Position numbers and translations under genes: made by a program
The notes under the pieces: generated by a model
Told to the model about the DNA's origin: nothing
Database searches by the model: none
Seen by the model: only the letters and a program-made list of their open reading frames with translations
Part shown: positions 2,512-37,597 of the stretch, piece after piece
Position numbering within the stretch: the stretch's first letter is position 1
Layout of the letters: every line of letters begins with the position of its first letter
Origin: a virus
Lineage: Duplodnaviria > Caudoviricetes
Direction: 5' to 3' (one strand)
DNA: 42,533 nt
IMG/VR virus record: IMGVR_UViG_3300027653_000025
Location: 1 to 42,533 of that record

Positions 2512-2795
2512 GCCGCCATCCTCCGCCCGAAGACGCGTTCGGAAACAGGGACGGCGCGTGAAAGCCTTGGCGCTGGTAAGTCGAGGTCGAAGCCGCGGAT
2601 GCCAGCCGAAGCCCACACGCGGCGGTAGATATAGCAGACCGTTGAATCGGACAAGCCGAACCAGTCGGCGATCGTCATGTACGTGTGCCCCTCAGCGACG
2701 CATACGCAGAGCGCCGCAACGCTGGTGGCGTCGAGTTTTATCGAGCGCATCAGTGTACCGTCAGCGAGGGGGATGAGGTGGAGACGTGGTTTCAT
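2508..2795 (-). CDS. HTH DNA-binding protein
   Basis: GHTYMTIADWFGLSDSTVCYIY helix-turn-helix pattern; ATGA overlap with the methyltransferase stop. Confidence 0.65.
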   Translation of the reverse strand: MKPRLHLIPLADGTLMRSIKLDATSVAALCVCVAEGHTYMTIADWFGLSDSTVCYIYRRVWASAGIRGFDLDLPAPRLSRAVPVSERVFGRRMAA

Positions 2796-3493
2796 TGATT
2801 CTGGTTTATTGTTTCTTGTGTGGCGTATTCGGGGCAGCGGCCGCGTGCAGGGATCTTTGGTGCCAGATCTACGTCGTTCGGCATTTCGTTCCCCCACGTA
2901 TGCCAGCCGGGGCGCTTCGGGAACATGGGCGAAACGGGGCGGGCGAAGATTTCCAACCGGGGGCCGGGCGACTGTTCCTCGATCATACTGTATACCACGC
3001 CGGGCTTCACGCTGTGCGGGAGGCGCGGGTCAAAGATCGCCGTGGGTGCGGGCGGGCCTTGCAGCCGGAGCGAACCCCGGACGCAAAACAGGAGGTGTTC
3101 CGTCGCGCCCCGGTAATAATAGCCCATGCGATAACTCGGTTCAAACTTCTCCGTCTGGATCTTCGTCCATGTGATGATCGTCTTGGGCTTGAATCCCCAC
3201 GCCTCGGCGAGTTCGTGCGCCTCCACCATGAATGCGTTCGTCGTCCAGAGGTAGAGGTGGGCGTCGTCCGCGGCGTGCTCCTCCACGCACAGGGCTTTCA
3301 GTTCGTCCATGCTCATGCTGCCGTATCGGTCAATGGAGGAAACACCGCCGGTCGCGCCGTCCCAAGAGTTGGGCCGATGTTCCGGCGAGCTTCTCAGGTC
3401 GCTTGAGCGATAAGGCCACGGCGGATCGGCCAAGATGGTGCGGTACCTCCCCCGCACATCCGGCCCCGGCGTGTGCTTCGGTTCTCTGCTCAT
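2792..3493 (-). CDS. MT-A70 family amino-methyltransferase
   Basis: ILADPPW, LYLWT, AWGF, WTK, GYYYRGATEH, HSVKP, RLEIFAR, GWHTWGNE motifs. Confidence 0.93.
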   Translation of the reverse strand: MSREPKHTPGPDVRGRYRTILADPPWPYRSSDLRSSPEHRPNSWDGATGGVSSIDRYGSMSMDELKALCVEEHAADDAHLYLWTTNAFMVEAHELAEAWGFKPKTIITWTKIQTEKFEPSYRMGYYYRGATEHLLFCVRGSLRLQGPPAPTAIFDPRLPHSVKPGVVYSMIEEQSPGPRLEIFARPVSPMFPKRPGWHTWGNEMPNDVDLAPKIPARGRCPEYATQETINQNQ

Positions 3494-6291: not shown

Positions 6292-6489
6292 TCAGCCACG
6301 ACCCTGCTTTCCGTGGTCGAGTCGCTGCCTGTGCAGCCACTCATTGAAGCCGTCGCGCCCCATCTCATGGACGATACTCGGGACGAGCAGCCGCTCGGAC
6401 GGGCCCCAGTTCGCGGGATCTGGTTCGAGCAGTACTTGTTCGAGGTATCGCTTTTGCAGGGATTGGATTCGCTCGTTTTGATCGGTCAT
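6292..6489 (-). CDS. Hypothetical protein
   Basis: 65 aa, ATGA overlap with the RusA-like gene. Confidence 0.6.
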   Translation of the reverse strand: MTDQNERIQSLQKRYLEQVLLEPDPANWGPSERLLVPSIVHEMGRDGFNEWLHRQRLDHGKQGRG

Positions 6490-6872
6490 AGCGGTATTTT
6501 TTCTTCGATCTGGATAATGGTCTGGGTTGGGCGCTTGGAGTCTTTGATGCTATCGAGCACGACAGGCCGGACGTAAGCCGGGGTGTCCCCCCGCAGAACG
6601 CCGCAGGCAACGAGCCCGTCCTCTACGAGCTTCGCCGTGGCCGCCACGTTGGTGCAATCAAAAGAGCGTAGACCCTTACCAAAGACGCAGGTTACGGACA
6701 GCCTCACCGGGTAATGCTGTACCGTTCGAGTCCCGGCCTCGTGAACGGCAGCTAAAACCAGCAGCCGCCACCGCTTTTTGGTGCCGGATCGCTTGCTCCA
6801 GTGGGCCCCGCCGTACCATTTATTCAGGCTGGGACCCACACGATCGATGATGATCGTTTGAATGTGTGTCAT
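6486..6872 (-). CDS. RusA-like Holliday junction resolvase
   Basis: PSLN...R..D..N...K.VEDGLV..GVL.GD pattern. Confidence 0.75.
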   Translation of the reverse strand: MTHIQTIIIDRVGPSLNKWYGGAHWSKRSGTKKRWRLLVLAAVHEAGTRTVQHYPVRLSVTCVFGKGLRSFDCTNVAATAKLVEDGLVACGVLRGDTPAYVRPVVLDSIKDSKRPTQTIIQIEEKIPL

Positions 6873-7813
6873 GCACCTACTGGATTCCGGATGATCGTAG
6901 CGTGTTCTCCCGTCGACCCGAAGCCGTTCTCACCCCGGGCACCGGGCCGCAGTTTGTCGACGCTCTTGGGCGTCAGGTGATCCGCTGCCACACGATCGGG
7001 GATGATCTGGGCGATACGCTGCCCCTGCTCGACCGTGACCGGTTCGGATCCCATGTTCCAGACTCCAGCGAAGAGCGGCCCCCTCCAGCCTTCGTCTATG
7101 ATGCCCTCCGAGACGAGAAGCCCGAGTTTTCGCAACGTCGACGAGCGGCCGATGATCCGGTACCAATAGCCGGGTGGCGGAGCGATCCGGAAGGCCAGCG
7201 GGACGTCGCAGAAGGTGCCCGGCTGGATTACCGTCTTGCGGGCACACGGCAGATCGAAGCCAGCATCGCCCGTGTATGCCCGAGTCGGGAGAGGAAACAG
7301 CTTCTGCAGTTCATATGGTTCGAGCTTGGCGTCCGGGTTGCAGGCGTCCAGATCGAGCAGGCATTCCAGCACCCCGCCTTCCGCCTTCGGCACCTCGGGT
7401 GCATGGAGCAGGTACGCGGCCGCGTCGGTCATGGCCGTTTGCAGCGTCTTGTATCGGCGGACGGACGGATGACGGAGCGACACGTGCGAAGCATATTGGT
7501 CGCCGATCCATGCGAACACGGGCTTTCCTGTGGCGATCGCATGTCCTACTTCCATCAGTGTTCCCACGTGTGGCACGTGGTGGTAGAGCTCGACCAGCAC
7601 CGCGTCGCTCTGGTCGATGGCGGCGTTGTTGATCGATTGCACGCCGTCCACCCGGTCACCCTCCTCGGCTCGAAGCCCCATACGGAATGCTCCCTGTGGG
7701 TCGAACGAAGCGATGCCCTGTGCAGCAAAGAAATCTTTCGCGGTCTTGCGCCATTCGGCGGCCGTCGCTTTGTCGGCGGCGTCAATGGCACCGGCCAGAT
7801 ATATCATCTTCAT
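6869..7813 (-). CDS. Fusion of nucleoside 2-deoxyribosyltransferase/dNMP N-glycosidase-like domain and trimeric dUTPase-like domain
   Basis: N-term IYLAG...IDQSDAVLV...GTLMEVGHA...GKPV; C-term AGFDL, RSS, GIIDEGWRG, RIAQ, RGENGFGSTG; ATG 7813 overlaps the kinase stop. Confidence 0.92.
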   Translation of the reverse strand: MKMIYLAGAIDAADKATAAEWRKTAKDFFAAQGIASFDPQGAFRMGLRAEEGDRVDGVQSINNAAIDQSDAVLVELYHHVPHVGTLMEVGHAIATGKPVFAWIGDQYASHVSLRHPSVRRYKTLQTAMTDAAAYLLHAPEVPKAEGGVLECLLDLDACNPDAKLEPYELQKLFPLPTRAYTGDAGFDLPCARKTVIQPGTFCDVPLAFRIAPPPGYWYRIIGRSSTLRKLGLLVSEGIIDEGWRGPLFAGVWNMGSEPVTVEQGQRIAQIIPDRVAADHLTPKSVDKLRPGARGENGFGSTGEHATIIRNPVGA

Positions 7814-8412
7814 CGTTTCTGGATCTGCGATTTGAGTTCGTTTGTGTTGTCGACTATGTGGACGGGAACACCACACCGGCCGAGTTCCTGCAGAGTCTCC
7901 CGAATATCCCTGTCTTGCTTCGCTCTGCGGGTGGCGTAGTGTTCCGCGATATCGGCCATTTGATACAGACCATCGGCCGGACACCTTTCTCCTGCCGGGC
8001 CATAGGCACCGCTCGCCACCGACCTCATCCATCCGAGCGATAGATACCTGTGCACGGCTACCACGGGATCCACCCGGAAGTAGATCACCCTATGGTCACG
8101 CCCCTGCTCCTGCCCCATCAGGGCGCAGAGCTCGCGGACCTGTTTCGGCCGTCTGGGATATCCATCGATCACGCAGTTGTAGTGATCGGACACGAAACGT
8201 TCGACCGCCTCGCACACCACGTCGTCGGGGCCAAAATCGCCCTCTGACAACGTGTGACCGAGGCCCGCCTTCCTGATCGCGTCTCCGGTGGACAGGTACG
8301 CGATTCGGTTCTCCTCGGCGAAACGGCGAGCCCACGTACTCTTACCTGCTCCGGGATCCCCGGTGACGAAGTGGACACCCACGCGGCATCCATACAAATA
8401 CGTTGACGTCAC
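7810..8412 (-). CDS. Adenylate kinase-like nucleoside monophosphate kinase
   Basis: P-loop GDPGAGKST, YLSTGDAIR, VIDGYPR. Confidence 0.88.
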   Translation of the reverse strand: MTSTYLYGCRVGVHFVTGDPGAGKSTWARRFAEENRIAYLSTGDAIRKAGLGHTLSEGDFGPDDVVCEAVERFVSDHYNCVIDGYPRRPKQVRELCALMGQEQGRDHRVIYFRVDPVVAVHRYLSLGWMRSVASGAYGPAGERCPADGLYQMADIAEHYATRRAKQDRDIRETLQELGRCGVPVHIVDNTNELKSQIQKR

Positions 8413-8774
8413 GGGCTCCTCAGTTCTCGGGTTTCGAAAAGGGCCCCCAACGCGGGCTCTCGTTCCCTGAGCATCCGCACGTACCGGCTCCGGAAGTCGT
8501 TGTTTAGCCGGAAGGCGTCGCCCTCGGTGCGGATCAGGTACTCGTACCGGAGCACCTCGAAGATCATAGATATCGAGATCCTCTTGCGGCCCTTATGGTA
8601 CAGCTGGCGGGCCATACCAACCACGATCTCGTAGACGTGGGGATTTGCCTTGTGGAACGCTTCGAAACGCTCCTGTATTGTCTGGTCTTGCTCGGGCTCC
8701 GGGTGTACGATCGGAGGGAGCTCGACCCCGGCCACGGAAAAGAGATCCGGGCCGGATTGAGCGACTGTTTGCAT
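8409..8774 (-). CDS. Conserved phage hypothetical protein
   Basis: FEAFHKANPHVY...LRYE...FRLNNDFRSRY...FETR pattern; lies between purZ and the kinase. Confidence 0.75.
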   Translation of the reverse strand: MQTVAQSGPDLFSVAGVELPPIVHPEPEQDQTIQERFEAFHKANPHVYEIVVGMARQLYHKGRKRISISMIFEVLRYEYLIRTEGDAFRLNNDFRSRYVRMLREREPALGALFETRELRSP

Positions 8775-8798
8775 GGGTCTTTGTCTGGGTGGACGGGA

Positions 8799-9944
8799 TC
8801 AGTAATAGAGTTCTCGGTTGCTCTGTAGGGCTTCCCACGCGGGGGTCTTAAACAGAACACCGAAACCGAGCGACACAGCACCGATATCGGAGCCGGTGGC
8901 CTTAAACGGTTCGCGGTACTTGTCGAGCACTCCGGCATAGAACAGGTCGTGTACTTCGCTCTCGATTTGTTGGAGCATGTCGTAGTCGCGGTCTTTCCAC
9001 GCTGCTTGTGCCGCCTTTCCGAGCTCCGGCTGCAGATAATCAAGGAACATCAACACGCCCAGCGTCGGGCGTACGATCGTGGCAGCGCGTAACACCTCCT
9101 CGCTGCTCCAGTTGGCGATGCGGCGGGGCAGTTTCGTTACGGTGGTGCGTTCGACCTGCACGTATCCACGCGTCCGACGGCTGAGCTCCTCCCACAAGAT
9201 CTCGCCCCCGAGCATCGGCCCGGAGTTGCCCGCCACGCGAATCGGGTACGTACGCGCCAGCATGTGCACCCGGAGATCAAGGCCGGGGTGAGACGGCGAG
9301 GCGCTGATGTCGTTGAACGCCTGTGCCGGGGTGATATCACGACTGGTGGCAAACGGGTAATGCCCGAAGTGGAGACCAAGACCCGCGCCTTGTGTCATTT
9401 CGACGTGTACGCGGTTCCCCTCGTCGATGTGCGAGTTAACAAGAGACGTCACATCGCCGAGATACTTCTGCAACTCACGAAAGTCTCGAGCTATCGGTGC
9501 GCGGCGCATTATCTTCTCCGCCTGTGCCGCACCTACGCCCTCGCGGGTGGAGCCGATCTTATCGCGGAGGTCCGCCTCTGCTTTCTCATGGGTATGAGTG
9601 ATCACCGTGGCCAACGGATCAATGACGAGCCGGTGCTCCACTTCCACGCCGATCTCCCGGAGCGCGGCGATCTCTTCGCGGAGCACATCGACATTTAGCA
9701 GGGCAGCTCCGGGTAAGGCAAGTGTCGTTTCTGGGCACTCGACACACGCGGCCGGGATATGGCGCAGGGCAACCACGCCACGCGGAGTAATCACCGAATG
9801 TCCTGCATTCGGCCCCCCGGTGCGCAGGGCGAGCGCGGGTTTTTCCTCGGCGGCGAGCCATTGGGCATACGCGCCTTTCCCACAGCTACCATACTGGCCA
9901 TCCAGTACGATCGTCAGCCGGGAACGTAGTTTTCCTTCTTCCAT
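8799..9944 (-). CDS. purZ: PurZ (N6-succino-2-amino-dAMP synthetase; PurA paralogue), PurZ0-like
   Basis: GQYGSCGKG (Ser where PurA has GDEGKG Asp), GGPNAGHS, GSTREGVG, EMTQG, YPFATSRD, RTYPIRVAGNSGP, ERTTVTKLPRR, MFLDY; likely start MEEGK at 9944 (381 aa). Confidence 0.9.
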   Translation of the reverse strand: MEEGKLRSRLTIVLDGQYGSCGKGAYAQWLAAEEKPALALRTGGPNAGHSVITPRGVVALRHIPAACVECPETTLALPGAALLNVDVLREEIAALREIGVEVEHRLVIDPLATVITHTHEKAEADLRDKIGSTREGVGAAQAEKIMRRAPIARDFRELQKYLGDVTSLVNSHIDEGNRVHVEMTQGAGLGLHFGHYPFATSRDITPAQAFNDISASPSHPGLDLRVHMLARTYPIRVAGNSGPMLGGEILWEELSRRTRGYVQVERTTVTKLPRRIANWSSEEVLRAATIVRPTLGVLMFLDYLQPELGKAAQAAWKDRDYDMLQQIESEVHDLFYAGVLDKYREPFKATGSDIGAVSLGFGVLFKTPAWEALQSNRELYY

Positions 9945-14965: not shown

Positions 14966-15190
14966 GCCGGGCAGCCGGTGCGACCGGGGGAGACCTTGTG
15001 CCCCCGGCGCCCGGTGATTTTCTTATGCGGACGTCTCCCAACCACCCACCGACATGTACCGAAGACCCGCTATGCATGCCCTCGCGGCGTGCCCTTCTCT
15101 TTCGTCTCCTCGAACGCGCACGCATGGTGGGGCCAAGGGTACCCCGCTATCCGTCAGGGCCGGACGCGGCACAAACGCGGGGGCCCGCCG

Positions 15191-16330
15191 ATGATCAGCA
15201 GCGACGTAGCCCGGCAGATACGTGCGGCAGACCTTCCACCTAACGAGAAGCTCCTGCTTTGGACGATGGCATCTTATGCTAACGCGTCGCTCGAATGTTG
15301 GCCGTCGCTCTCCACGGTAGCGGCTGATATGGGGGTGCAGAAGCGGTGGGTGCAACGTCTCCGAAAGGCGGTCGAAGACCGGGGATACCTCGTGGTCGTG
15401 GCCAAAAAGCCGGGCAGCTCTAACCACTACCAGATACGCTTCCCCGAGGCCCCGGCCGAGCGGTTAGGCGATGTTCCGGAAGACCCTCCAGCGGATGTGA
15501 CGAGCGGCCCCGCAGACAAGGGCCAAGACGTTACAAACGCGACGGACGAACATAAACCGGACAAGATGACTCCCCGGCCACGATATCCAGATAATATGGC
15601 TCCGGGACCATGGGAGGGATGGTCCGGGGACCATTATAATGATGGTCCGGGGACCATTATAATGATGGCTCCCGAGCCATCCGAAGAAGTCAGGGAAGAA
15701 GACAAGGAAGAGGACAGGGAAGAGGACAATCCTCGTGCGCGTGCGGGTGTACACGCTCACACGGGAGACGGCACCGATCTTTTCGGCAATCATGTAGCGT
15801 CTGCAGTAGTACCTGCCAAGACGCCACCGGCGAAGGGTTGCAGGAGAGATCCGATAAACGACGAGCCGGGGCTTTGGTTGAAGTTGGTTGACGCTCTGCA
15901 GGACGGGGCTCGAGCTACCAACGAGGATAAGTATATCGTTGCTGCTCAGTCGTGGAATGAGTTCGTCGAATGGACGAACGCGACGATGGGCACCAAGCTG
16001 TCCAAGGTCAAGTTCCTGAATGACAAGCGCAAGGAGGGGATAAGGCAGAAGTTCGATGAGGTCATGCCGCACCTCAAGGATCTATACGTCGGCATAGCAA
16101 GCAGCAAGTTCCTGCTCGGGATCGCTCAGGGGCGAGACTGGAGCGTTGATTTTGACTTTATCTGGAAGAAGAACGATGCAAGATGGCAAAAGATCACAGA
16201 GGGTGGCTACGGAGTCGACGCATCTCCGGGACTTCCTCAAGGAGGGACCAGCGAATTTGGCAAGGCAGCAGCCACAGCGGCCAGAGCAGCCGAAGACCTC
16301 GACGGCTATATCTACCCGTGGGACAGATGA
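15191..16330 (+). CDS. Replication initiator (N-terminal HTH, lambda O-like layout)
   Basis: EKLLLWTMASYAN...CWPSLSTVAADMG...SNHYQI; internal iterons; C-term W.VDFDFI...KITEGGY; probable start 15191. Confidence 0.85.
   Translation: MISSDVARQIRAADLPPNEKLLLWTMASYANASLECWPSLSTVAADMGVQKRWVQRLRKAVEDRGYLVVVAKKPGSSNHYQIRFPEAPAERLGDVPEDPPADVTSGPADKGQDVTNATDEHKPDKMTPRPRYPDNMAPGPWEGWSGDHYNDGPGTIIMMAPEPSEEVREEDKEEDREEDNPRARAGVHAHTGDGTDLFGNHVASAVVPAKTPPAKGCRRDPINDEPGLWLKLVDALQDGARATNEDKYIVAAQSWNEFVEWTNATMGTKLSKVKFLNDKRKEGIRQKFDEVMPHLKDLYVGIASSKFLLGIAQGRDWSVDFDFIWKKNDARWQKITEGGYGVDASPGLPQGGTSEFGKAAATAARAAEDLDGYIYPWDR
15596..15730 (+). repeat. Putative replication origin: four 16-bp imperfect palindromes at 23-bp period plus a purine-rich 12-bp repeat tract
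   Basis: ATGG-N8-CCAT at 15596, 15619, 15642, 15665; then GAAGAnGnCAnG x4. Confidence 0.8.
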
Positions 16331-21784: not shown

Positions 21785-22602
21785 CCGGCAAATACGCACG
21801 AAGCCCGCTCGGGCCGGGATATATCAAGAGCCCGAATCCGGCGGCGCGCATCAAAGATGTAGACGCCAAAGAGGGGATCGTGTCGTTCTATGCATCGAGC
21901 TTCGATACGATTGACTCGGACGGGGATTATATCACGAAAGGCGCCTTTACCAAGACCATCAATGAGTGGGGGCCGAAGGGCCGCGACCGGATCGCGCACC
22001 TGTTCGACCACAACCCGACGCACCGCGTGGGGCGACCGATTGAGATTATCGAAGACGACTTCGGCCTTCTCTTTCGGTCGAAGCTCTCGCAGACGGCCAA
22101 GGGCCGCGACGCGCTGATTGAGTACGAAGAGGGCGTCATCCGCGAGCACTCGATCGCCTTCGATGTGATCGGGCATCGCATTGATGAGGATAGGGGCGCG
22201 ATCGCCCTGACCGAGCTCCGGCTATACGAAGGCTCGGGCGTCACGTGGGGCGCAAACATGAATACGCCCACGATTGATCTTAAAGCGCTTCAGGATGACC
22301 CGCTTCTGTTGGATTACATGATCCTGCAGATGAAGTCATTTAAGCGCACATTATCGCGGCCCATTACAGACAGCCGCGCGAAGGAAATCGAAGCCTCACT
22401 TCAGAGCTTCGAAACGGTGATCTCCGAGGTCAAAACAGCACTCCAAGCGTCGCGCAGCAGCGAAACCGGCACGCAGGGTGAGTCGCTTTCCGAGGTAGAG
22501 ATCATGCAAGGACTACTCGCACGCATGAACCTAACCAGCATAAAGCGACATGCAGGAAAAACAGATCCAGGAGGCCGCCAAGGCGCTCGAATCGCAGCTT
22601 AA
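21772..22602 (+). CDS. HK97-type prohead protease
   Basis: YAS.F..IDSDGD.I.KGAF, HLFDH, SIAF, L.E.S.VTWGAN; start MDTVTG at 21772. Confidence 0.9.
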   Translation: MDTVTGKYARSPLGPGYIKSPNPAARIKDVDAKEGIVSFYASSFDTIDSDGDYITKGAFTKTINEWGPKGRDRIAHLFDHNPTHRVGRPIEIIEDDFGLLFRSKLSQTAKGRDALIEYEEGVIREHSIAFDVIGHRIDEDRGAIALTELRLYEGSGVTWGANMNTPTIDLKALQDDPLLLDYMILQMKSFKRTLSRPITDSRAKEIEASLQSFETVISEVKTALQASRSSETGTQGESLSEVEIMQGLLARMNLTSIKRHAGKTDPGGRQGARIAA

Positions 22603-23854
22603 AGAGCTTTTCGAAGAAGTCGAGCCGCGCATCAAGGCTGGCGAAGACGCCGGAAAAGGCGTTGCCGAGCTCAAAGAGCGCGCCGAGAAGATTATTCAGG
22701 ACAACGCCGCGAAGGCGGACGAGATACAGGAGCTTGTTCAGGAGGCGCAGGACGCGCTCAACGAGCGTATCGACGGCCTCGAAACCCGCCTGAAAGCGTT
22801 CGCCACAGCGGAGACGGACGAGCGCATCGTTGACTATCAGAAGGGCAAGCGAAAGCAGGTCGATATGGCCGCCGCGCTCGGGCGCAAGCTTCGCGAGAAG
22901 GGCATCACGTCCGCGTCCGAGAAAATACGTGTCTCGTTCAACATCGATGAGATGCTGAAGGGGCACAAGGACGTGACGACTGTCGGCGCCGTGTACGAGC
23001 CTTATTATCGGCCGGGCATCATCGGCCCTCAGGAGCGGCGCCTCACGGTCCGAGACTTGCTGCCGGTCATTCAGACGGCGCAAAACACGGTGTATTTCGT
23101 CCGCGAGACGGACGTTACTGACAGGTCCGGGCCACAGTCTGCGCTCGGCGAGCTCAAGGGCCACACGGACATCAAAATCGGGGTCGAGAGCGAGGCCGTC
23201 CGTACGCTTGCGCACTTCATCCGCGTGCCGACGCAGCTTCTCGACGACATCCCAGCGCTCGAAGGCCACATCCGTGCGCGCATGGGCATCCTGCTTGACC
23301 TCCGCGAAGAGGCGCAGGCGCTCTACGGCGACGGCAACGGGCAGAACCTACACGGACTGTTCACCCAGGCGACGGCGTTTAACGAGAACCTGATGGACTC
23401 GGTCGACAGCCCGCAGGGGCTTGACCGCATCCGTAAGGCGATCGCTCAGGTTGGGCTGAGCGGCTTCCCGGCGACGGGCCTTGCGCTCAACGACCTCGAC
23501 TGGGCCGATCTCGAGCTCGTCAAAGACGGGCAGGGTGCCTACATTTTCGCGCGCCCGCAGGACTCGTCCGTGCCGCGTCTCTGGGGCCTCCCGGTTGCGG
23601 CCACGACGGCCGTCACGGTCGGCGACTTCCTCGCCGGGGCGTTCAACCTCGGGGCAGAGCTATACGAGAAGCAGGCGGCGACGCTCAGCATCTCAACGGA
23701 GGACTCGGACAACTTCCAGCGCAACCTCGCCACGGTTCGCGCCGAGAAGCGCGTCGCGCTCGTTGTGCTGCGGCCGGATGCCTTCGTGTATGGCACTGTG
23801 ACGCCTGGTGAAGGAAACGGCGACGGAAACGGCGACGGAAACGGCGACGGATAA
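22550..23854 (+). CDS. Major capsid protein, HK97 fold with N-terminal coiled-coil delta domain
   Basis: QLLDD, YGDGNGQNLHG, LWGLPV, NFQRNLATVRAEKR...RPDAF. Confidence 0.95.
   Translation: MQEKQIQEAAKALESQLKELFEEVEPRIKAGEDAGKGVAELKERAEKIIQDNAAKADEIQELVQEAQDALNERIDGLETRLKAFATAETDERIVDYQKGKRKQVDMAAALGRKLREKGITSASEKIRVSFNIDEMLKGHKDVTTVGAVYEPYYRPGIIGPQERRLTVRDLLPVIQTAQNTVYFVRETDVTDRSGPQSALGELKGHTDIKIGVESEAVRTLAHFIRVPTQLLDDIPALEGHIRARMGILLDLREEAQALYGDGNGQNLHGLFTQATAFNENLMDSVDSPQGLDRIRKAIAQVGLSGFPATGLALNDLDWADLELVKDGQGAYIFARPQDSSVPRLWGLPVAATTAVTVGDFLAGAFNLGAELYEKQAATLSISTEDSDNFQRNLATVRAEKRVALVVLRPDAFVYGTVTPGEGNGDGNGDGNGDG
23813..23851 (+). repeat. 12-bp tandem repeat (GGAAACGGCGAC x3) encoding the capsid C-terminal GNGD tail
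   Basis: Direct reading of the sequence. Confidence 0.9.
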
Positions 23855-23868
23855 GTCGCTAACTGACA

Positions 23869-23898
23869 TCACGAGCCCCGCCATCGGGCGGGGCCGTG
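23869..23898 (+). terminator. GC hairpin after the capsid gene
   Basis: cacgagccccgcc...ggcggggccgtg; no U tract. Confidence 0.45.
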
Positions 23899-23930
23899 AG
23901 TCATGTGGACAGTAAAACGAGGACGTCGAG

Positions 23931-24218
23931 ATGCCGAAAGTCGAAATATTAAAGCCATTCGGGCCTTATGCCGAAGGCCAGACGGCCGAACTGCCCGAGA
24001 ATATCGTCCGCGTCTACGAAAGTCGAGGCCGCGTGCGCCGCGTCGGCGGCGATGCACGGAAGACGAAGCCGACCGGCCCGAGCCGGATGAAACCGGCGTC
24101 GGGTGAGGTGACGAAGCTTCATAAGGGCGGCGGCTGGTATGCGGCCGTCAAAGACGGCGAAGAGGTATTCAAGGGCCGCGAGTCGGAAGTTGACGCGTAC
24201 ATCAGCCGTGCTGAGTAG
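23931..24218 (+). CDS. Small head-associated hypothetical protein
   Basis: 95 aa between capsid and connector genes. Confidence 0.65.
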   Translation: MPKVEILKPFGPYAEGQTAELPENIVRVYESRGRVRRVGGDARKTKPTGPSRMKPASGEVTKLHKGGGWYAAVKDGEEVFKGRESEVDAYISRAE

Positions 24219-24750
24219 CTATACCCGACATAGCGCGACGAGGCTTACCGGCGTGACCGTCGTGGATCGCTCGGGCGATCTGCCCGTGACGCTCGATGAG
24301 GTGCGGGCCTTCCTACGTGTGACAAACTCGGTTGAGGACGCGCTGATCGAGGGTCTCATCCTACCCGCAACAGAGATCGTCGAGTCGGAGTCCGGCGAGG
24401 CGATCATGCCGCAGACGATACGGGCCTCATACGAGGGTGCGTCGGGGCCGCTGCGCCTTCCGATCGGCCCGCCGACCGAGATCATCGGCGTCACGATCGG
24501 CGGCGATCTACAGGACCCGGCCCACTACGAGCCCCTTGCTGGCAAGTATCCGAGCCTTTCGGGCGCGTTCTCTGGTGACGTGTCGGTGCTATATCGAGCC
24601 GGGCACGAGGGCGGGGCACCATCCGTGCTAAAGCATGCGGTGCTTCTCACGATAGCAGATATGTACGAGGGCCGGACGAGTCACGAGTTCGAGCAGTCGG
24701 CTGCGCGCCATTTGCTCAATCGGGCCGGATACCGGAGGGTGGCGATCTGA
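24208..24750 (+). CDS. Head-tail connector (gp6/gp15-like)
   Basis: PVTLDEVRAFLRV...EDALIEGLI...YRAG...LKHAVL...YE.R; GTG start assumed. Confidence 0.85.
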   Translation: MLSSYTRHSATRLTGVTVVDRSGDLPVTLDEVRAFLRVTNSVEDALIEGLILPATEIVESESGEAIMPQTIRASYEGASGPLRLPIGPPTEIIGVTIGGDLQDPAHYEPLAGKYPSLSGAFSGDVSVLYRAGHEGGAPSVLKHAVLLTIADMYEGRTSHEFEQSAARHLLNRAGYRRVAI

Positions 24751-25094
24751 TGGCGAAGATGAAAACGGCATCTCACCTTACCGAGTTTATGACGGTGCTT
24801 CGCCGCGTGGAGACGCAGACGGAGTATCACGAGCCGGTCGTGCATTGGGAGGAGGGCGATATGTTTCTTGCGGAGGTCACTGTGCAGTCCGCGGCTGAGC
24901 GTATGCGCGGCGAGCAGGTGACGGCAGAGAAGCGCGCCCGGATCACGGCTCGTTATCCGCTTTCGATCAGCGCGAAGGATCGCATCAGGCATGAGGCGAC
25001 GGGTGAGGTGTACGAGGTACACGGCCCGGTCGCGACGTCGTACCGGAACCGAATGATCGAGATGGTCTGCACGTCAGCGGAGGTGATGCCTTGA
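24750..25094 (+). CDS. Head closure / head-tail adaptor (SPP1 gp16-like)
   Basis: Position; ITARY...DRI...YEV pattern. Confidence 0.8.
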   Translation: MAKMKTASHLTEFMTVLRRVETQTEYHEPVVHWEEGDMFLAEVTVQSAAERMRGEQVTAEKRARITARYPLSISAKDRIRHEATGEVYEVHGPVATSYRNRMIEMVCTSAEVMP

Positions 25095-25555
25095 GAGTGA
25101 CGCTTGACATACCGGACCGGGAGGTTAAGCGCATGATGCAGGGCCTCGAACGGGCGTCGGCCTCACTGCGCGCCGAAGCATCGAACCTGGTTAAGCGCTA
25201 CCTGCTGATGATCGAGCGGGACGCACGGCGCAACATGGATCGTGGTGGGGGTTCGATTCCCCGCACGGATACGGGACGCCTCAAAAACTCGATCCGTCAT
25301 GCGCTCGACGCGGCGTTTTTTCGGGCATCGCTCGGTGGCGAGGTATTCACGGACGTCCATTACGCGGTTTATGTGCACGAAGGGACGGGCATCTTCCATA
25401 GTGAGGGCCGCCGTACGCCGTGGGTGTATTTTGACGAGCGGCGCGGGCAGTTCGTGGTGACGCGGGGCATCCCGGCCAACCCGTTTTTACGCGACGCCTT
25501 CGAGAAGCACGTGCCGGGCTTCGTTCGCGATCTTAAAAAGCTGGTGGAGGGATAG
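25091..25555 (+). CDS. HK97 gp10-like tail completion protein
   Basis: DTGRLKNSI, YAVYVHEGTG, TRG.PANPFL. Confidence 0.88.
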   Translation: MRVTLDIPDREVKRMMQGLERASASLRAEASNLVKRYLLMIERDARRNMDRGGGSIPRTDTGRLKNSIRHALDAAFFRASLGGEVFTDVHYAVYVHEGTGIFHSEGRRTPWVYFDERRGQFVVTRGIPANPFLRDAFEKHVPGFVRDLKKLVEG

Positions 25556-25984
25556 ATGCGCACGCTATCGGCAGATCTTCCACTTCAAAAGGCGCTTGGC
25601 GACAGGATCATCGGCGCCATCGCTGGGGCCGGGTTCAGCGCTCCGGTCACGACGCGGCCGGAGCAGGGCATCGCTTGGCCGTACGTCCTGATTGGCGAGT
25701 CGACGGAAGATGGGACGGCCCGCACGAAGAGCGAGGCCGGAACAGAGATACTTACGACTGTCCGCGTTTATTCGCATAACGTCGCAGAGGCGAAGGCTAT
25801 TCGGGCGGCGATCGTCGCGGCCGTCACGGACGAGGAGGATCAGATAAAGCTTGAGCCGCCCTTTGTGGTTGCGCTCACTATATACGAGTCATCGCCGGTG
25901 ATCGCGATTCACACGGAGATGGGCTCGCATTATCAGGCCGCTGCGGCCTTTCGGTTTCATATCGCACAACAGCATGAGGTTTAA
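25556..25984 (+). CDS. Tail terminator (DUF3168-like)
   Basis: LQKAL...WPYVLIGE...VRVYS; position. Confidence 0.75.
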   Translation: MRTLSADLPLQKALGDRIIGAIAGAGFSAPVTTRPEQGIAWPYVLIGESTEDGTARTKSEAGTEILTTVRVYSHNVAEAKAIRAAIVAAVTDEEDQIKLEPPFVVALTIYESSPVIAIHTEMGSHYQAAAAFRFHIAQQHEV

Positions 25985-25987
25985 TCG

Positions 25988-26428
25988 ATGGCACGTTTTA
26001 AGGGACAAGAGCTCGGCCTCTGGCTGACAGACGAAGAACCGACCGATCCGGAGTCCACGAATGATTACAGTTTCGTCGGGCTCGCCACGAGCCACTCCTT
26101 CGATGTGTCGGTTGACGACATCGACGGCGCCACGAAGGATGACGGCGCGTGGAACGACGTTTATTCAGGCCGCAAGGGTTATTCGTTGGGTGTCGAGGGC
26201 ATGGCGGATCGCAGCGGGCAGGAGGGACAGGACGTGATTGAGCAGGCGCTGCTTGATGACACGCAGGAGCTCTTCTGGCTTCTGACGACCGGAGTGGCTG
26301 GCGACGTGCAGCGTTGGGGCCGGGCGGCGCCGGGCGCGTTCTCGCTCTCAGCGGGCGATCAGGAGATGGCGACGTTCAGCGCGACGCTAAACGGCAAGGG
26401 TAAATTCGAGCGCGGGGTGGTGAGCTGA
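25988..26428 (+). CDS. Major tail (tube) protein, TP901-1-like
   Basis: ID.ATKDDG.W...GRKGYS, ATFSATLNGKG. Confidence 0.88.
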   Translation: MARFKGQELGLWLTDEEPTDPESTNDYSFVGLATSHSFDVSVDDIDGATKDDGAWNDVYSGRKGYSLGVEGMADRSGQEGQDVIEQALLDDTQELFWLLTTGVAGDVQRWGRAAPGAFSLSAGDQEMATFSATLNGKGKFERGVVS

Positions 26429-26429
26429 T

Positions 26430-26810
26430 ATGGCAGCGATTCCATCGGTAGAGATCGAGATCGGGGGCAAGACGCGGGAGTTAAAATACCCACTCATGTC
26501 CTTCTCGATCGCTCAGCGCCGCTACGGGATACGCATCCCGATCTCGGCCATGACTGACCCGACGATTGCGGACATGGCCGAGGCGGTATGGCTCGGGCTT
26601 CTGCACGACTATCCGCGTCTCGATCTGTCTCGCGTGATCCAGTGGGTTGAGGAAGAGGAACACCCTCTCTTTGAGACGTGGGCGCGGGCGCAGGGGCCAC
26701 TACTCGAAGCCCTTGAACGTCTCGGCGCGAAGACGAAGACGGACACCGGGGAGGCGAGGGAAGAGGATAACCCGGAGGACCTACTGGTCCCTTTGGACGA
26801 GAGCCCATGA
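26430..26810 (+). CDS. Tail assembly chaperone (gpG-like)
   Basis: Between tube and tape measure; IEIGGKTRELKY. Confidence 0.8.
   Translation: MAAIPSVEIEIGGKTRELKYPLMSFSIAQRRYGIRIPISAMTDPTIADMAEAVWLGLLHDYPRLDLSRVIQWVEEEEHPLFETWARAQGPLLEALERLGAKTKTDTGEAREEDNPEDLLVPLDESP
26789..26795 (+). other. -1 ribosomal frameshift slippery site C CCT TTG
   Basis: X XXY YYZ in correct phase; -1 frame open into ORF 26807-27187. Confidence 0.7.
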
Positions 26811-27187
26811 TTGATGCGGCCCGGATGCTTGAGCAGGCGGCTGAGCACGGCGTAGTCGTCCGGCATGGGATGACGCCGGGCGAAGTCGATCTGCTTATTC
26901 AAGGGGCCGCTGAGGCGGAGAAGCGGGCATGGCGGCGCACGGCGTGGCAGACGGCGTGGCTGCTTAACGCGCTCGTCGGGACGAAAAAGAAGGTCTGGAA
27001 GGTCGAGGACCTGCTTGAAGTGGGCGGGAACGACGGCGGCGCGATGCCGAAGCCGGGAACGCCTGCTCACGACAGGTTCAAACGCGATTTCAAACGCCGG
27101 GTGTCTGCCTATATGGCGCGGTGCCACGCGGCGAATGATCGCAGGAAACGGATTGGGGGTTTAGATGCTACGAACGGCCGGACTTGA
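26807..27187 (+). CDS. Tail assembly chaperone (gpT-like)
   Basis: MTPGEV motif; precedes the tape measure gene. Confidence 0.75.
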   Translation: MIDAARMLEQAAEHGVVVRHGMTPGEVDLLIQGAAEAEKRAWRRTAWQTAWLLNALVGTKKKVWKVEDLLEVGGNDGGAMPKPGTPAHDRFKRDFKRRVSAYMARCHAANDRRKRIGGLDATNGRT

Positions 27188-29957
27188 GGCAAGGCTCGGA
27201 CTTGACCTCTCGGATTTCCAGAAGGGCATCCGTAACGCCTCTCGTGCGCTTGAGCCGATCCAAAAGCGGATGCAGGAGGTCGGGCGCCGGATGACGACGG
27301 CGATCACCGTTCCCGTCACGGCGGCCGGATACGCGGTGGCGCGCATGGGCGGCGACTTCCAATATTCGATGAACCGCGTTCAGGCGCTCACGGGCTCGAC
27401 CGGATCACAGCTCGAGGCGTTGAGCGATCAGGCGAAAGAGCTGGGCATCAGCACGCAGTTCTCCGCATCGCAGGCCGCGGACGCGATGGGTTTCCTCGCG
27501 ATGGCCGGTTTCGACGCTAACCAGATCCTTGGCACGATGCCCGCGACGCTCGACCTCGCGGCGGCCTCGGGGATGGATCTCGCTCGAACGGCGGACGTCA
27601 TGTCCAACATCATGCAGGGTTATGGCCTTGCGACGGAGGAAGCGGCGCGGGCGTCGGACGTTCTAACGAAGGCGTTTACGTCATCGAATACCGACCTCGG
27701 ACAGCTTGCCGAGGCGATGAAATACGCCGGGCCGGTCGCGGCTGGCATGGGCGTCGAGTTTGAAGAAGCGGCGGCCGCGATCGGCCTAATGGGTAACGCG
27801 GGTATTCAGGGCTCGATGGCGGGTACGGGTCTGCGGCAAGCATTAACGCAGCTCGCGAAGCCTACGGGGGATACACGGCGGACGATTGAGCGGCTGGGAC
27901 TATCGGTTAAAGATCTTAGCCCAACAACAAACTCACTCACAGAGATCATAGAGCGACTGTCCGAAGCGGGTGCGGACACGACCGATGTGCTCACGATCTT
28001 CGGGCAACGGGCCGGTCCGGCGATGCAGACGCTCATCGATCAGGGCGCGGACGCCGTGCGCGGCTTGACGGAGGAGCTGAGGGAGTCCGCTGGCGTCACG
28101 AAGGAGGTCGCCGATGTGCAGATGCAAGGGTTTCGCGGCGCGATGCTCGGCCTAAAAAGCGCGGTCGAGGGCCTTGGGATTGCGGTTGCGGAGTCTGGAG
28201 TTCTGGACTTCTTCGAGGATATGACGCGTCGGGCGACGGATCTCGTTCGCCGGATCGCAGATATGAACCCGGCCATTCTCCGCACGACAGCCATCGTAGC
28301 AGGCGTTGCCGCGGCGATCGGCCCGGTCCTGCTTGCGCTTGGTAGCATGACCACCCTGCTGCCGGTCATCAAAACCGGTTTCCTTGCACTCACTGGCCCG
28401 GTCGGGCTTACGGCAGCGGCTATTGTGGGCGTCGGGGCGGCGGCGTACGCGATGCGCGATGAGATCGAAGCAGCGTTGTCTGCTGTTCGCCCGGCGCTGA
28501 ATGCTTTCGCAGGTGCATGGAGGGGTGTTCATCGCGAGGTCGGCGCGATCTGGCAGCTGATCACGACGACTGTTGGTGATTCGCTCGACAACATCGCTGA
28601 TTTATTCGAGACGTTCAGTTCTCTCGTTCAAGGCGAGTGGGCTGATATGTGGACCGCCCTGCTCAATATCGCGAAGCGACAGGGGGAGGGAATAATCGGC
28701 TACACGAGGGGGTGGCTCGAGCGGTCCGCCTCTATGTGGAAGTCTTTTGGAGATAGCGCCGCTGACGGTGCGACTGCGGCGTGGGAGTGGCTTGGCGAGA
28801 ACCCTGTCCAGCGGGCGGTACATGACTTCCGAACAGGTGGCTGGCGAGACCTTGTTCAAGCGGCGGCCGATCTTGGAAGGGACGTTGCCGAGGGGTTGAA
28901 TACGGCCCTCGAGCGGCACGCGGCGATGGGGATCATCCGTAACGTCGACATGATCGGCGACGCGTTCAGTGATCAGGTCCGGATCGCCGGTGAGCTCGAA
29001 GATGCGGTCGCAAATATTTATCGCCCGATGCTGCTCTTGTCGGGCATCGCGGATGATGCTACAGTGAGTATCGAGGGTATGGGCGGCGGAGCAGAGGAGA
29101 CATCGATCCACTTGTCGGATCTTGCCGCGGCGCTCATGCGTGTCGACCGCATCGCTGCCGCCTTCTCGGGCCGCGATCCACTCAAAGCGATGCAGGATCG
29201 TGCGCGGCTGATGACGAGCTTTCTGGAAGATGTTTACGGTGGAGACATTGAGATCGGCGGGGCAGATACGGCGCGCATAAGGTCTGAGCTCGACGCCCTC
29301 AACATGGTGATTGGCGAGACGCTGGCCGCACGAGCGCGAATGACGGAAGATCCGCTCATGGCCGAAAACTTCCTGCCGGGTCTTGACGATGTATCGGTCC
29401 GCCTCGACGGCCTCACAGAGCGGCTCGGCATCGTCCATGAGCGCACGGTGAGTTTTGGTGAAGCGGCGGCGTACATCCTTGCAGACGATGTGTCGATGGC
29501 GGTCGGCCGTGTGGTCGAGGGTGTGATCATGATGGAAGACGGTTTCCGCTCGCTCTCGGATACGCTCAAAAGCTTCGGCGAGATGGCGCAGCGCATCTTC
29601 GCGCGGCTTATCGCGGACATTACGGCGGCGGTGGCAAAGGCGGCGGCGTTGAGGGGCATTGCCACGCTGTTCGGTATCGGCACCATCGGCTCGTTCGGTT
29701 CACTCCTTAGGGGCGCACTCGGCTTTGGTGGAGCGCGGGCGATGGGCGGGCCAGTCATGTCGGGGCAGGCCTACGTGGTCGGTGAGCGCGGCCCGGAGCT
29801 TTTCGTGCCGCCCTCGGCCGGGAAGATCATCCCGAATCACGCGCTCGGCGCCGTCCGCTCAGGGCCGATCGACGTGCGCATACGGGGCGAGTTCGTCCAG
29901 CGAGGCGGGGATCTGGTGGCGACGATCGACACGGTTCGAAGGGTTCAGGGATACTAA
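27165..29957 (+). CDS. Tail tape measure protein (TP901 family)
   Basis: T.FSASQAA.AM.FLAMAG, NAGIQGS.AGT.LR, C-term RA.GGPV...VGERGPELFVP. Confidence 0.95.
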   Translation: MLRTAGLEARLGLDLSDFQKGIRNASRALEPIQKRMQEVGRRMTTAITVPVTAAGYAVARMGGDFQYSMNRVQALTGSTGSQLEALSDQAKELGISTQFSASQAADAMGFLAMAGFDANQILGTMPATLDLAAASGMDLARTADVMSNIMQGYGLATEEAARASDVLTKAFTSSNTDLGQLAEAMKYAGPVAAGMGVEFEEAAAAIGLMGNAGIQGSMAGTGLRQALTQLAKPTGDTRRTIERLGLSVKDLSPTTNSLTEIIERLSEAGADTTDVLTIFGQRAGPAMQTLIDQGADAVRGLTEELRESAGVTKEVADVQMQGFRGAMLGLKSAVEGLGIAVAESGVLDFFEDMTRRATDLVRRIADMNPAILRTTAIVAGVAAAIGPVLLALGSMTTLLPVIKTGFLALTGPVGLTAAAIVGVGAAAYAMRDEIEAALSAVRPALNAFAGAWRGVHREVGAIWQLITTTVGDSLDNIADLFETFSSLVQGEWADMWTALLNIAKRQGEGIIGYTRGWLERSASMWKSFGDSAADGATAAWEWLGENPVQRAVHDFRTGGWRDLVQAAADLGRDVAEGLNTALERHAAMGIIRNVDMIGDAFSDQVRIAGELEDAVANIYRPMLLLSGIADDATVSIEGMGGGAEETSIHLSDLAAALMRVDRIAAAFSGRDPLKAMQDRARLMTSFLEDVYGGDIEIGGADTARIRSELDALNMVIGETLAARARMTEDPLMAENFLPGLDDVSVRLDGLTERLGIVHERTVSFGEAAAYILADDVSMAVGRVVEGVIMMEDGFRSLSDTLKSFGEMAQRIFARLIADITAAVAKAAALRGIATLFGIGTIGSFGSLLRGALGFGGARAMGGPVMSGQAYVVGERGPELFVPPSAGKIIPNHALGAVRSGPIDVRIRGEFVQRGGDLVATIDTVRRVQGY

Positions 29958-32180
29958 ATGGCATATGGCGTCATCATACGGGCATCCTTGGCGACGGCCG
30001 AGGGCACGCACATGATAGAAGTGCTACGGCGCGATTATTCGGGCGCGATACATGAGGTGCACGCGGGCACGCCTTTCTACGTTGAGGAATACGGCACGCG
30101 AGGCGCGGATCTTGACGCGGACATCCGGCCAAGCCAAGTGACGGTCAATCTCATCATCACGGATGCGGCGGCGCTGGGCGCGGTGCGTGGCACGCTCTCG
30201 GCCGAGTCACGCGAGTATCGAATGGTGGTGCGTCACGGTGCGGCGGTCATGTGGCAGGGATACGTGATGCCGGTCACGTCGGTGACGCAGCTTGATGACG
30301 GCGTGCAGGGCGTGCGGGTGGTTGCAAAAGACCGCGTGCGCTCGCTCGATGACCAGATATTTACGGCGGCGGACGGCGCACCCTATACAGGGCAGGCGTC
30401 GCTCGGTACGATACTCGAGCGCGAGCTTGGCTACGTCGGCCACAGCATCACACAGCATGAATACGCGTCGCGTTTCCGCACGCCCGGCGTAATCGCTCCC
30501 TACGCACAGATACGGATCGATCAGGCGCGCTTTTACGACGATGAGACGGGCGAGCCGACGCACAGCCGCGGCGATGTCGTCCGGGCGATCCTCGGCACCC
30601 AGCAGGCGCAGCTCACGCAGTGGCGCGGACGGTGGGAAGTGACGACGCCGCACGCGGCAGGCGACACGTTTTCGGTGGACAAATGGGTGGTCCGTAGCGA
30701 TGAGCTCTCCGGAGAGCCGCCAGCCCGTCAGGGGCGGGCGTCCTACGACGTCGGTGGGACGGCGGTGGCGCTGCAAAATGGTTCATTCGAGGCGGGGCCG
30801 ATTGGAGGCAGCACGACGGCACCGGGATGGACGGGCATTGGCCGCAGGCAGGCCGCCGCACTCGCTGTCGACGGTGAATACGTGGGCGTGCGCGAAGCCT
30901 ACGTGACGATGGAGCGTATCGACCCGGAGACGGCGGCGCCGTTCGCCTCTGGCTATGGATACCAACGCGTGGCTGTTGCTGTGGGTGCTGGTCCGACCGC
31001 GCTAAGCGTTTCGATGGCGGGCCGAATCTATTACGAGACGTCAGAGATCCCGACGGAGCATCACGAGATGTTCTTTTTCGCGGAGGTCAGGCATCTCGGT
31101 GGTCACTACTTCAACGACGTGACCGGGCGCTGGCAAAGCGCACCACATAAAATCTACGTCGGCCGTAGCGTGGTTGTCGGCTACGATTTCGGGTGGGTGA
31201 ATCGGCTTTTCATGTTGCCGACTGTACCTGAGGGCGGCACGGTCGAAGTGAGGCTGTACGACGGCGTGGTCCGTGTTGCTGCCAGTCATGCAGGCTCAAC
31301 GGGTGAGACATACTACGACGCGATAGAGCTGATGCCACAGGTGGCGTCCGGGCGCGAGATCATCAGTTTTACCTCCTACAGCCCCACAGCACAGGACGGC
31401 GAGACGGAACAGATCAATGTGCCGCTTGGAGACGGCCCTTTCGGCTCGGCACGCGGCGCAATGCTGCTTGAAAGTGGCGCGCTGACGTCCGAGTGGCGGG
31501 TCGGCACCGAGTCTCGCACGGTGCCGCACACACAGATTCTCGCCGAGCACCTGATGCGCACGCGGGGCAAGGGTCGGCGGCGCGTCCGGCTGACGACGAT
31601 GGGGCCGGTGTCGGAGATGGCGCCGGTCAAAAAGATGCAGCTCGACGGTGCCATTTACTGGCCCACCTACATGGAGATCGAATGGCCTTCCGGTCAGGCG
31701 ACGATCGAGGGCATCGAGCTGATCGACGTGCCGGTGCCGAGTGGGATGCGCGAAGAAGTGGAGGTCAGGCCGCGTCCCTACGGCGGTTCAGGCCCTGTAC
31801 AGGGCGGCGGCGCATCAGGAGGGTTGACGATAGAAGAGGCCGACCAGCGTTATCTCCGCCCTACAGGCGTCTCGACGTACGTAACCGGCACGCCGGGCGA
31901 AGACCAGATTCTTTTAATGTGGGTAGCGACGCATCCGTGCGCATGGTCGGGCAGGGGCAGCGCGGGCGTGCTGGAGCCGCCGTCCGCGACGCGCACGCTC
32001 AGCATACGCCGCGGTGCATCTCAAATCGGAACAGTGACATTCAACGCGGCGTCAACTACTGGCGCGCTATCCGGCAACGCATCCATCGATGCGGGCGACG
32101 TCATCACGTTGGTGGCCCCCTCGGCGCTCGATGAGTCGTGGCGCGATCTTGGCATCACACTGCTGCTGGACCCGGCATGA
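29958..32180 (+). CDS. Tail tip / baseplate hub-like protein
   Basis: 740 aa after the tape measure; WQGYV hub-like motif, LQNGSFE CBM-like start. Confidence 0.7.
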   Translation: MAYGVIIRASLATAEGTHMIEVLRRDYSGAIHEVHAGTPFYVEEYGTRGADLDADIRPSQVTVNLIITDAAALGAVRGTLSAESREYRMVVRHGAAVMWQGYVMPVTSVTQLDDGVQGVRVVAKDRVRSLDDQIFTAADGAPYTGQASLGTILERELGYVGHSITQHEYASRFRTPGVIAPYAQIRIDQARFYDDETGEPTHSRGDVVRAILGTQQAQLTQWRGRWEVTTPHAAGDTFSVDKWVVRSDELSGEPPARQGRASYDVGGTAVALQNGSFEAGPIGGSTTAPGWTGIGRRQAAALAVDGEYVGVREAYVTMERIDPETAAPFASGYGYQRVAVAVGAGPTALSVSMAGRIYYETSEIPTEHHEMFFFAEVRHLGGHYFNDVTGRWQSAPHKIYVGRSVVVGYDFGWVNRLFMLPTVPEGGTVEVRLYDGVVRVAASHAGSTGETYYDAIELMPQVASGREIISFTSYSPTAQDGETEQINVPLGDGPFGSARGAMLLESGALTSEWRVGTESRTVPHTQILAEHLMRTRGKGRRRVRLTTMGPVSEMAPVKKMQLDGAIYWPTYMEIEWPSGQATIEGIELIDVPVPSGMREEVEVRPRPYGGSGPVQGGGASGGLTIEEADQRYLRPTGVSTYVTGTPGEDQILLMWVATHPCAWSGRGSAGVLEPPSATRTLSIRRGASQIGTVTFNAASTTGALSGNASIDAGDVITLVAPSALDESWRDLGITLLLDPA

Positions 32181-34276: not shown

Positions 34277-34289
34277 TAGAGGTATAGAC

Positions 34290-34958: not shown

Positions 34959-35146
34959 CCGATAACCAGAGTCTGACGCAATCAGCGTCGTGCAGCGTGC
35001 GCATGATGACCGACGAAGAGATCACGCTCGCCTTACATGCCGAGGGTAAGTCGGAGGCGGAGATCCAGCAGGCCTTGCAAGAGGCGGCAGCGGCTCGCAT
35101 AAATTTTGCCGAGCGATACGAATCATTCGATGAGGAAGACCAATGA
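34955..35146 (+). CDS. Small acidic hypothetical protein
   Basis: 63 aa, ATGA overlaps on both sides. Confidence 0.6.
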   Translation: MTDNQSLTQSASCSVRMMTDEEITLALHAEGKSEAEIQQALQEAAAARINFAERYESFDEEDQ

Positions 35147-35307
35147 TGTGGATCATTCCGGCAGCAGCGCTGGCCATCATTATCACGCTATTCATCGTCA
35201 ACGCCAACAGGCGGAAGACCAGGCAGCCGGGCGGCTACGGCGGCGGCTACAGCGGCCACGATCCGGGGCGCAGCAAGCCTGACGACCGCGAGATTGAACC
35301 GAGGTAA
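35143..35307 (+). CDS. Small single-TM protein (absent from the ORF track)
   Basis: Manual translation MMWIIPAAALAIIITLFIVNANRRKTRQPGGYGGGYSGHDPGRSKPDDREIEPR. Confidence 0.6.
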   Translation: MMWIIPAAALAIIITLFIVNANRRKTRQPGGYGGGYSGHDPGRSKPDDREIEPR

Positions 35308-35338
35308 TGATGCCTGAGATCAAGCACACGCCGTCACC

Positions 35339-35950: not shown

Positions 35951-35973
35951 CCTTAAAACGCCGGAGGCCGTTT

Positions 35974-36393: not shown

Positions 36394-36394
36394 C

Positions 36395-37595: not shown

Positions 37596-37597
37596 CC

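Follow-up and report, generated by a model that had tools for sequence, protein, structure and literature searches.

The IMG/VR record IMGVR_UViG_3300027653_000025, a siphophage-like virus sequence of 42,533 nt that was analyzed in full (hereafter the window), contains a gene cluster that we read, with moderate confidence, as a PurZ0-type 2-aminoadenine (Z) cluster of the DmtZ-DutZ kind, extended by a gene for an adenylate kinase (Adk)-fold protein that likely phosphorylates the Z deoxynucleoside monophosphate, dZMP. The core Z pathway is assigned with high confidence. The DmtZ-DutZ core has already been published, and the window adds just one further divergent member to it; the undescribed part is the Adk-fold kinase gene. 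On the minus strand, the cluster begins with a purZ-like gene (8799-9944; 381 aa; PF00709, E = 1.4e-29) whose predicted product is a PurZ0-type succino-aminodeoxyadenylate synthetase. After a 24-nt gap it continues with an open reading frame (ORF) at 8409-8774, the gene for the putative dZMP kinase (7810-8412; 200 aa with a GTG start; PF00406 ADK, 4.6e-14) and an NDT-dUTPase fusion gene (6869-7813; 314 aa in a single frame; PF05014 and PF00692). A GTGA overlap at 8409-8412 joins the ORF to the kinase gene, and an ATGA overlap at 7810-7813 joins the kinase gene to the fusion gene. These genes, their coordinates and the 4-nt overlaps of the last three genes agreed with the first-pass annotation of this DNA when checked by ORF and Pfam analysis. 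Because the record is linear, is 62% complete by CheckV, has no terminal repeat in its 42.5 kb and has a 48,403-bp counterpart in another assembly that carries identical proteins, every gene absence given below refers to the 42.5 kb of the window.

By its sequence the synthetase is a PurZ0-type enzyme and not a canonical PurZ. The best match in the PDB was 7VF6, the PurZ0 of phage Archimedes (E = 2.9e-41). Residue S20, within GQYGSCGKG, lies at the position of the catalytic Asp13 of PurA and was invariant across an alignment with six reference phages. In the same alignment D302 occupied the phosphate-donor base position, which is Asp in 7VF6 and Asn in phiVC8 and Barton. PurZ0 reportedly uses GTP, as described by Tong in 2023. 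According to the available text of PMC8342488, an amide at the donor position (N297/Q308) excludes G and Z; Asp at this position therefore points to GTP, and the PurZ0 of the window likely uses it. One sentence in the accessible part of PMC12884076 gives the two donor preferences in reverse order. In a quick PurZ tree of 58 rows the synthetase grouped on the side of PurZ0, away from the ATP-type references, and formed its own clade with environmental sequences at 99% support. One PurZ cluster member was 95% identical to it. Eight further loci (L094-L098, L100, L104 and L107) hold PurZ-like genes in which Ser is combined with a donor motif of the form Q-F-N; of these loci, L095, L096, L100 and L107 had at least 2 kb downstream and no Dut or NDT match; these genes possibly belong to a different, cellular system.

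The fusion protein was 37.2% identical to the DmtZ-DutZ fusion of Wayne over 88% of its length (E = 3e-31), and 110 of 922 matching phage records covered at least 80% of the query; the 60 listed were all from Arthrobacter phages. The Wayne fusion was characterized by Poubanne et al. 2026 (PMC12884076). In the part of that paper available to us, DutZ converts dATP into dAMP and dGTP into dGMP, whereas DmtZ releases adenine from dAMP and transfers the deoxyribose phosphate to Z; Ghobes DmtZ also hydrolyzes dZMP. The same text reports that 98 of 98 PurZ0 genomes contain dutZ and 85 contain dmtZ, with the two fused in 77. The accessible part of a preprint (10.1101/2025.10.22.683976) likewise ties NDT and dUTPase genes to Wayne-like genomes without DatZ and MazZ. 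The DmtZ-like NDT domain of the window is encoded at 7409-7813 (minus strand; about residues 1-135; PF05014, 3e-11 over residues 4-106). When aligned with Wayne and Ghobes, it retained every residue that had been mutated in Ghobes DmtZ: Y6, D12, P57, N77 and E103 correspond to Y5, D11, P39, N62 and E88. These comprise the Tyr6/Asn77/Glu103 triad plus Asp12 and Pro57 as given in the accessible text of PMC12884076. The uncharged 5′-phosphate pocket was also kept, Val11, Gln13, Val98 and Gly99 being replaced by I10, A12, V83 and G84. The DutZ-like trimeric dUTPase-fold domain is encoded at 6869-7336 (minus strand; about residues 160-314; PF00692, 1.9e-23 over residues 173-302). It was 49% identical to the DutZ of both Wayne and Ghobes and 52% identical to that of Johann, and among the 60 of 182 phage records ranked by Dut similarity, actinophages that carry PurZ0 (mostly 44-52%) outranked other dUTPases (32-41%). 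From this homology the two domains likely have the DutZ and DmtZ roles and chemistry measured in their homologues.

The first-pass annotation had suggested that the dUTPase fold acts on dGTP or dATP and that the NDT domain deglycosylates dAMP. Both proposals are likely right, since these activities have been measured for DutZ and DmtZ homologues (PMC12884076, in its available part), and for the same reason neither is new; the headline novelty falls because the chemistry deduced from the sequence has since been published. Of the combination that it regarded as novel, the DmtZ-DutZ core is in that paper, and the addition of a kinase was undescribed in the literature searched. Motif III of the Dut domain (GIIDEGWRG), offered as a functional clue, proved uninformative. 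Solved dUTPases carry IDEGYRG (1F7D) and IDAGYRG (1SJN), so the motif is not diagnostic of specificity; among 60 motifs from Dut proteins encoded next to purZ, 6 had GW, and motifs II and III do not predict dATP or dGTP hydrolysis. We therefore rejected it as a specificity marker.

These observations also bear on the idea that the cluster makes no Z and provides ordinary nucleotide supply, through AMP synthesis by a PurA-like enzyme, dUTP sanitizing, a hydrolase for salvage and an adenylate kinase. The Dut motifs shared with solved dUTPases would suit such a role, as would the report, in the available text of PMC12884076, that the kcat of the Wayne fusion is still highest for dUTP. However, Ser replaces the catalytic Asp of PurA, and according to the same text 99% of PurA proteins have Asp at this position and the 147 phage PurZ sequences all have Ser. 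No residue of the DmtZ set is lacking, and the nearest relatives of the Dut domain among the phage records listed are those of PurZ0-carrying actinophages. We regard this explanation as very improbable.

As the first-pass annotation had stated, no HD or MazG-like protein was found. HD, MazG, DUF550 and DUF5664 gave no match when 136 further ORFs were compared with Pfam and 84 ORFs with PHROGs, nor in six-frame searches of the window. The DUF550 search detected its positive control, phage Barton; the six-frame search for DUF5664 had no such control, and the Wayne DUF5664 protein gave no phmmer match to the window. PurB was not found in the ORF scans, and NDP-kinase families gave no match in the Pfam and PHROGs scans. 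The proposal of a self-contained pathway was thus not supported, since no PurB, NDP-kinase or polymerase was found in the window. In the pathway that we propose, DutZ would cut dGTP to dGMP and dATP to dAMP, and DmtZ would strip adenine from dAMP and could move the sugar-phosphate onto free Z. PurZ0 would join aspartate to dGMP, likely with GTP, and dZMP would be set free by the PurB of the host. Conversion of dZMP to dZDP would fall to the phage kinase, which would also draw dZMP away from DmtZ, and host Ndk would form dZTP. Once dATP is depleted, Z would be inserted opposite T by a polymerase that is not selective, probably that of the host, and Z would be expected in the virion.

The cluster resembles those of Wayne (Arthrobacter) and Ghobes (Gordonia), as described in the accessible part of PMC12884076, in its PurZ0-type synthetase, in that no datZ or mazZ was found, in the NDT-Dut domain order, in the DmtZ catalytic residues and in fusion length (314 aa versus 307). 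It differs in the added Adk-fold kinase and in the placement of its PurZ in a separate clade, and the 42.5-kb window is without DUF5664, PurB, the small post-purZ gene described below and DpoZ, in a lambda-like genome with an O-type initiator. As in the PurZ/DatZ/MazZ triad of S-2L, phiVC8 and SH-Ab 15497, dZTP is predicted to arise from dGMP while dATP is drained (PMC8342488, available text). Unlike the triad, the window uses other helper enzymes and has Asp rather than Asn/Gln at the donor position.

We consider it somewhat probable, from its pocket residues and the genes beside it, that the kinase acts on dZMP. The structural model had a pLDDT of 91.6, and its top fold matches were adenylate kinases at 20-26% identity. 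In common with the E. coli and Aquifex Adk proteins (PF00406), it has the fold, the P-loop and the STGD and DG[YF]PR motifs. The AMP-site residues were kept, T42, R47, G84, R87 and Q91 corresponding to T31, R36, G85, R88 and Q92 of E. coli Adk. Since G85 and Q92, which according to PMC3369945 recognize the 6-amino group and keep GMP out, are among them, a role as dGMP kinase is unlikely. Unlike Adk, the window kinase has a shorter NMP-binding region, a different LID, a location close to purZ, and Gly (G61) at the position of Val59. Among 52 family members, including 51 single-domain relatives chosen by length from the best 150 profile-search matches, this position was Ala or Gly in 51, compared with Val or Ile in 138 of the 151 Adk domains used as controls, a comparison weakened by a family profile that already had Gly/Ala at this position, which makes the signature partly circular, and by a control set of multi-domain Adk proteins chosen by pattern. 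Adk Val59 would line the C2/N3 edge of adenine, where Z bears its extra amine, a placement for which literature searches gave no confirmation. In the LID, R119 and R156 of Adk aligned with R122 and R162, and R130 and R163 were invariant in the nine-member kinase subfamily. Searches of cultured phages with the kinase found no cluster relative and seven weak records, and a word-index search returned the kinase itself alone. No description of a phage-encoded dZMP kinase was found in the literature searched, whose coverage left out some key PurZ papers.

Five other phages also have the kinase gene downstream of purZ. In L087, L048 and L165 it is one of the first two genes that follow purZ. In L087 the order purZ, kinase, dmtZ/dutZ is the same as in the window and the kinase is 47% identical. 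L048 and L165 carry purZ, the kinase and a Dut protein with a shared C-terminal domain, and the PurZ of both falls in a different clade. This Dut protein is a reverse-order fusion, Dut preceding the C-terminal domain (L165:5017-6072 and L048:8523-9518). The C-terminal domain, 54% identical between the two, had a weak NDT score in L165 (E = 7e-5) and carries Gly in place of the DmtZ Tyr. A scan with the kinase alone returned three non-self loci, L195 and L196 (from one phage) and L197, with purZ directly upstream in all of them. The kinase is fused to a dUTPase in L195/L196 and, in L197, to a domain read by eye as an all-alpha pyrophosphatase. The fusion genes L195:9971-10975 and L197:3271-4299 each directly follow a purZ whose product has Asn as its donor residue, and the L195 fusion is followed by a gene read by eye as ribonucleotide-reductase-like. 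Moreover, 7 of 20 kinase clusters had a longest contig equal to the bp with that of one of 240 PurZ matches (0.34 expected), a number that drops to six because one contig of 1,190 bp is too short for both genes; such shared longest contigs are indirect evidence of purZ-kinase linkage. This recurrent linkage, together with the pocket residues, makes dZMP the likely substrate. The kinase would then likely carry out a reaction hitherto attributed to host enzymes, which makes it a direct candidate for a dZMP kinase; if it is selective for dZMP, it would be useful for dZTP production and for higher Z content in engineered cells.

A gene-neighborhood survey of purZ homologues, which the first-pass annotation had proposed, was carried out with PurZ matches, taking the top 80 among 472 from viruses and the top 80 among at least 545 from metagenomes. 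It yielded 159 loci besides this phage, 132 of them distinct and 81 of these with at least 2 kb downstream. In agreement with the core assignment, Dut lay downstream of purZ in 65 of the 81 loci, NDT in 55 and both in 52, whereas two DatZ queries matched none of them. A small gene without a Pfam match (L003:13097-13660 and homologues) follows purZ in 45 of the 81 loci, whereas the window, L087, L048 and L165 lack it; the K-x-x-EYG and DT-x-x-DL-x-x-Y pattern of its product is suggestive of all-alpha NTP pyrophosphatases.

Several findings weigh against the assignment of the cluster and of its kinase. The kinase was present in just 3 of the 81 purZ loci, from which it appears that most PurZ0 phages manage with host kinases. 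A scan for a second kinase subfamily, using a generic P-loop pattern and covering 4 of 64 parts, gave 19 weak matches with purZ near none of them. The Val59 position aligned uncleanly in L195 (S) and L197 (E), and LID residues R123 and R167 had no one-to-one alignment. The clade of the window synthetase adjoins the Wayne/Ghobes/Archimedes PurZ0 clade, with joint support of 91% (SH-aLRT) in a tree rooted by a single long outgroup. In the fusion, Trp replaces Tyr in motif III and the DmtZ Trp124 lid is an apparent His (ASHV versus SSWV/PSWA). This Trp was modeled and never mutated in the accessible text of PMC12884076, and its equivalent was also not evident in L087, L088 and L008.

In a different account of the kinase, it would act as a myokinase that drains adenine by converting dADP to dATP and dAMP, which DutZ and DmtZ would destroy, thereby replacing the dADP step of DatZ. 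All adenine-reading residues of Adk are kept in the kinase, the L195 phage fuses the kinase to a dUTPase, and the assays in PMC12884076 used triphosphates for DutZ and monophosphates for DmtZ, each of which is compatible with such a drain. However, the consistent change of Val59 to Gly/Ala would be left unexplained, host Adk and Ndk already interconvert dADP, and a kinase that accepts dAMP would also rebuild dATP. We therefore consider this role improbable, and dZMP phosphorylation remains our preferred reading.

The genome encodes a terminase, portal, capsid, tape measure, amidase and YqaJ exonuclease, as well as a lambda-O-like replication initiator (14978-16330, plus strand; PF13730 and O-like PHROGs). 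Neither PolA/DpoZ nor Prim-Pol was found in six-frame searches of the window. In this it differs from the PurZ/DatZ/MazZ phages, all of which encode PolA except S-2L, which has PrimPol (PMC8342488, available part). The presence of the lambda-O-like initiator without DpoZ in the 42.5 kb suggests that the host replisome may copy the phage DNA. Similar cases appear to exist among PurZ0 phages. G002 (L079, L173-L175; 48,445 bp) has a terminal repeat and is rated 100% complete by CheckV. It carries genes for WhiB, Dut and an HTH_36 initiator and a purZ of the PurZ0 clade; a six-frame search gave no PolA, Pfam recognized no polymerase in its 108 ORFs, and neither the kinase nor NDT was matched. L048 (15,960 bp; 37% complete) spans YqaJ, the cluster and the terminase, without PolA. 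The kinase is not tied to the polymerase-less trait, as L195-L197 carry PolA-like genes. If a Z phage without DpoZ is confirmed, the host replisome and an O-type origin would work on Z-DNA. The wider proposal, that a lambda-like phage without its own polymerase relies entirely on the host replisome for a Z genome and on nothing but pool control, and that the Adk family with Gly/Ala for Val59 consists of phage dZMP kinases that several lineages have acquired next to purZ, is tentative.

The absence of a Z-selective polymerase from a lambda-like phage also raises the prospect that the cluster is active while A-to-Z substitution is partial, or that the cassette was recently captured. Beyond the O-like initiator and the missing DpoZ and Prim-Pol, this view draws on restriction signals, which count against full substitution. 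An MT-A70 (DPPW) DNA methyltransferase gene lies at 2792-3493 (minus strand), CTAG was absent from both strands (84 expected), GCCGGC was likewise absent (65 expected), and CCWGG and CCCGGG were strongly depleted; these patterns are restriction-site avoidance. The methyltransferase and the lack of CTAG fit DNA that is still exposed to restriction at A-containing sites. However, L008 also lacks CTAG and has PolA, MT-A70 genes also occur near purZ in the PolA-bearing L009, L015 and L080, and a contig of a relative in run X2 skips 2796-3491, so the methyltransferase is an accessory gene. Taken against full substitution, the methyltransferase and site-depletion signals are ambiguous. Against this view, S-2L attains full substitution using a polymerase that is not selective, and Klenow makes no distinction between A and Z (PMC8342488); the missing part of the genome could encode a polymerase; and the GC content of 0.61 is the same for cluster and genome. 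Partial substitution or capture is thus unlikely, though somewhat less so than the adenine drain. Partial substitution is compatible with the kinase reading, from which it differs solely in the extent of substitution.

Two further genes adjoin the pathway genes. ORF 8409-8774 (minus strand; 121 aa) encodes hypothetical viral protein phrog_13625 (PHROGs E = 8.8e-25), and its look-alikes in the Atlas were unnamed viral clusters. The first-pass annotation had counted it as a cluster member; tblastn matched no other phage among all fetched loci, and we rejected it as a Z gene. It is an insertion outside the conserved cluster. The RusA-like resolvase gene (6486-6872, minus strand; PHROGs E = 2.6e-9) shares an ATGA overlap at 6869-6872 with the fusion gene and is probably cotranscribed with the cluster, and it is not a Z-pathway gene; the first-pass annotation made no mention of it.

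As for related sequences, the L001 record is wholly contained within the window, an exact pattern search with the record ends matched no further viral contig, and no circular joint was found among contigs aligned to the window ends. A related strain in a run from another study retains the cluster. Runs X3 and X4 matched parts of the structural arm and barely the Z cluster; as no contig joins across the cluster, they were not used as evidence of its loss in relatives. Contigs of X1 matched 32936-32974 and 33502-33534, and because both sides of each match continue into a CRISPR-like repeat, the matches look like spacers against the phage. This repeat occurred three times in L167 (host unclassified) and matched one unclassified genome, G004, to which 22600-42533 of the window gave no match.

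No consensus promoter was found between 6200 and 10200. A promoter-like element, TTG(C/T)G(T/C), 17 nt and TAT(C/T)TT, preceded by a tandem GTGAA(G/A) repeat, occurred in six copies (0.03 expected by chance), at 1053, 5668 and 6224 on the plus strand and at 10067, 11252 and 11972 on the minus strand. These are probably early promoters with a regulator site, and the copy at 10067, beside purZ, is directed away from that gene.

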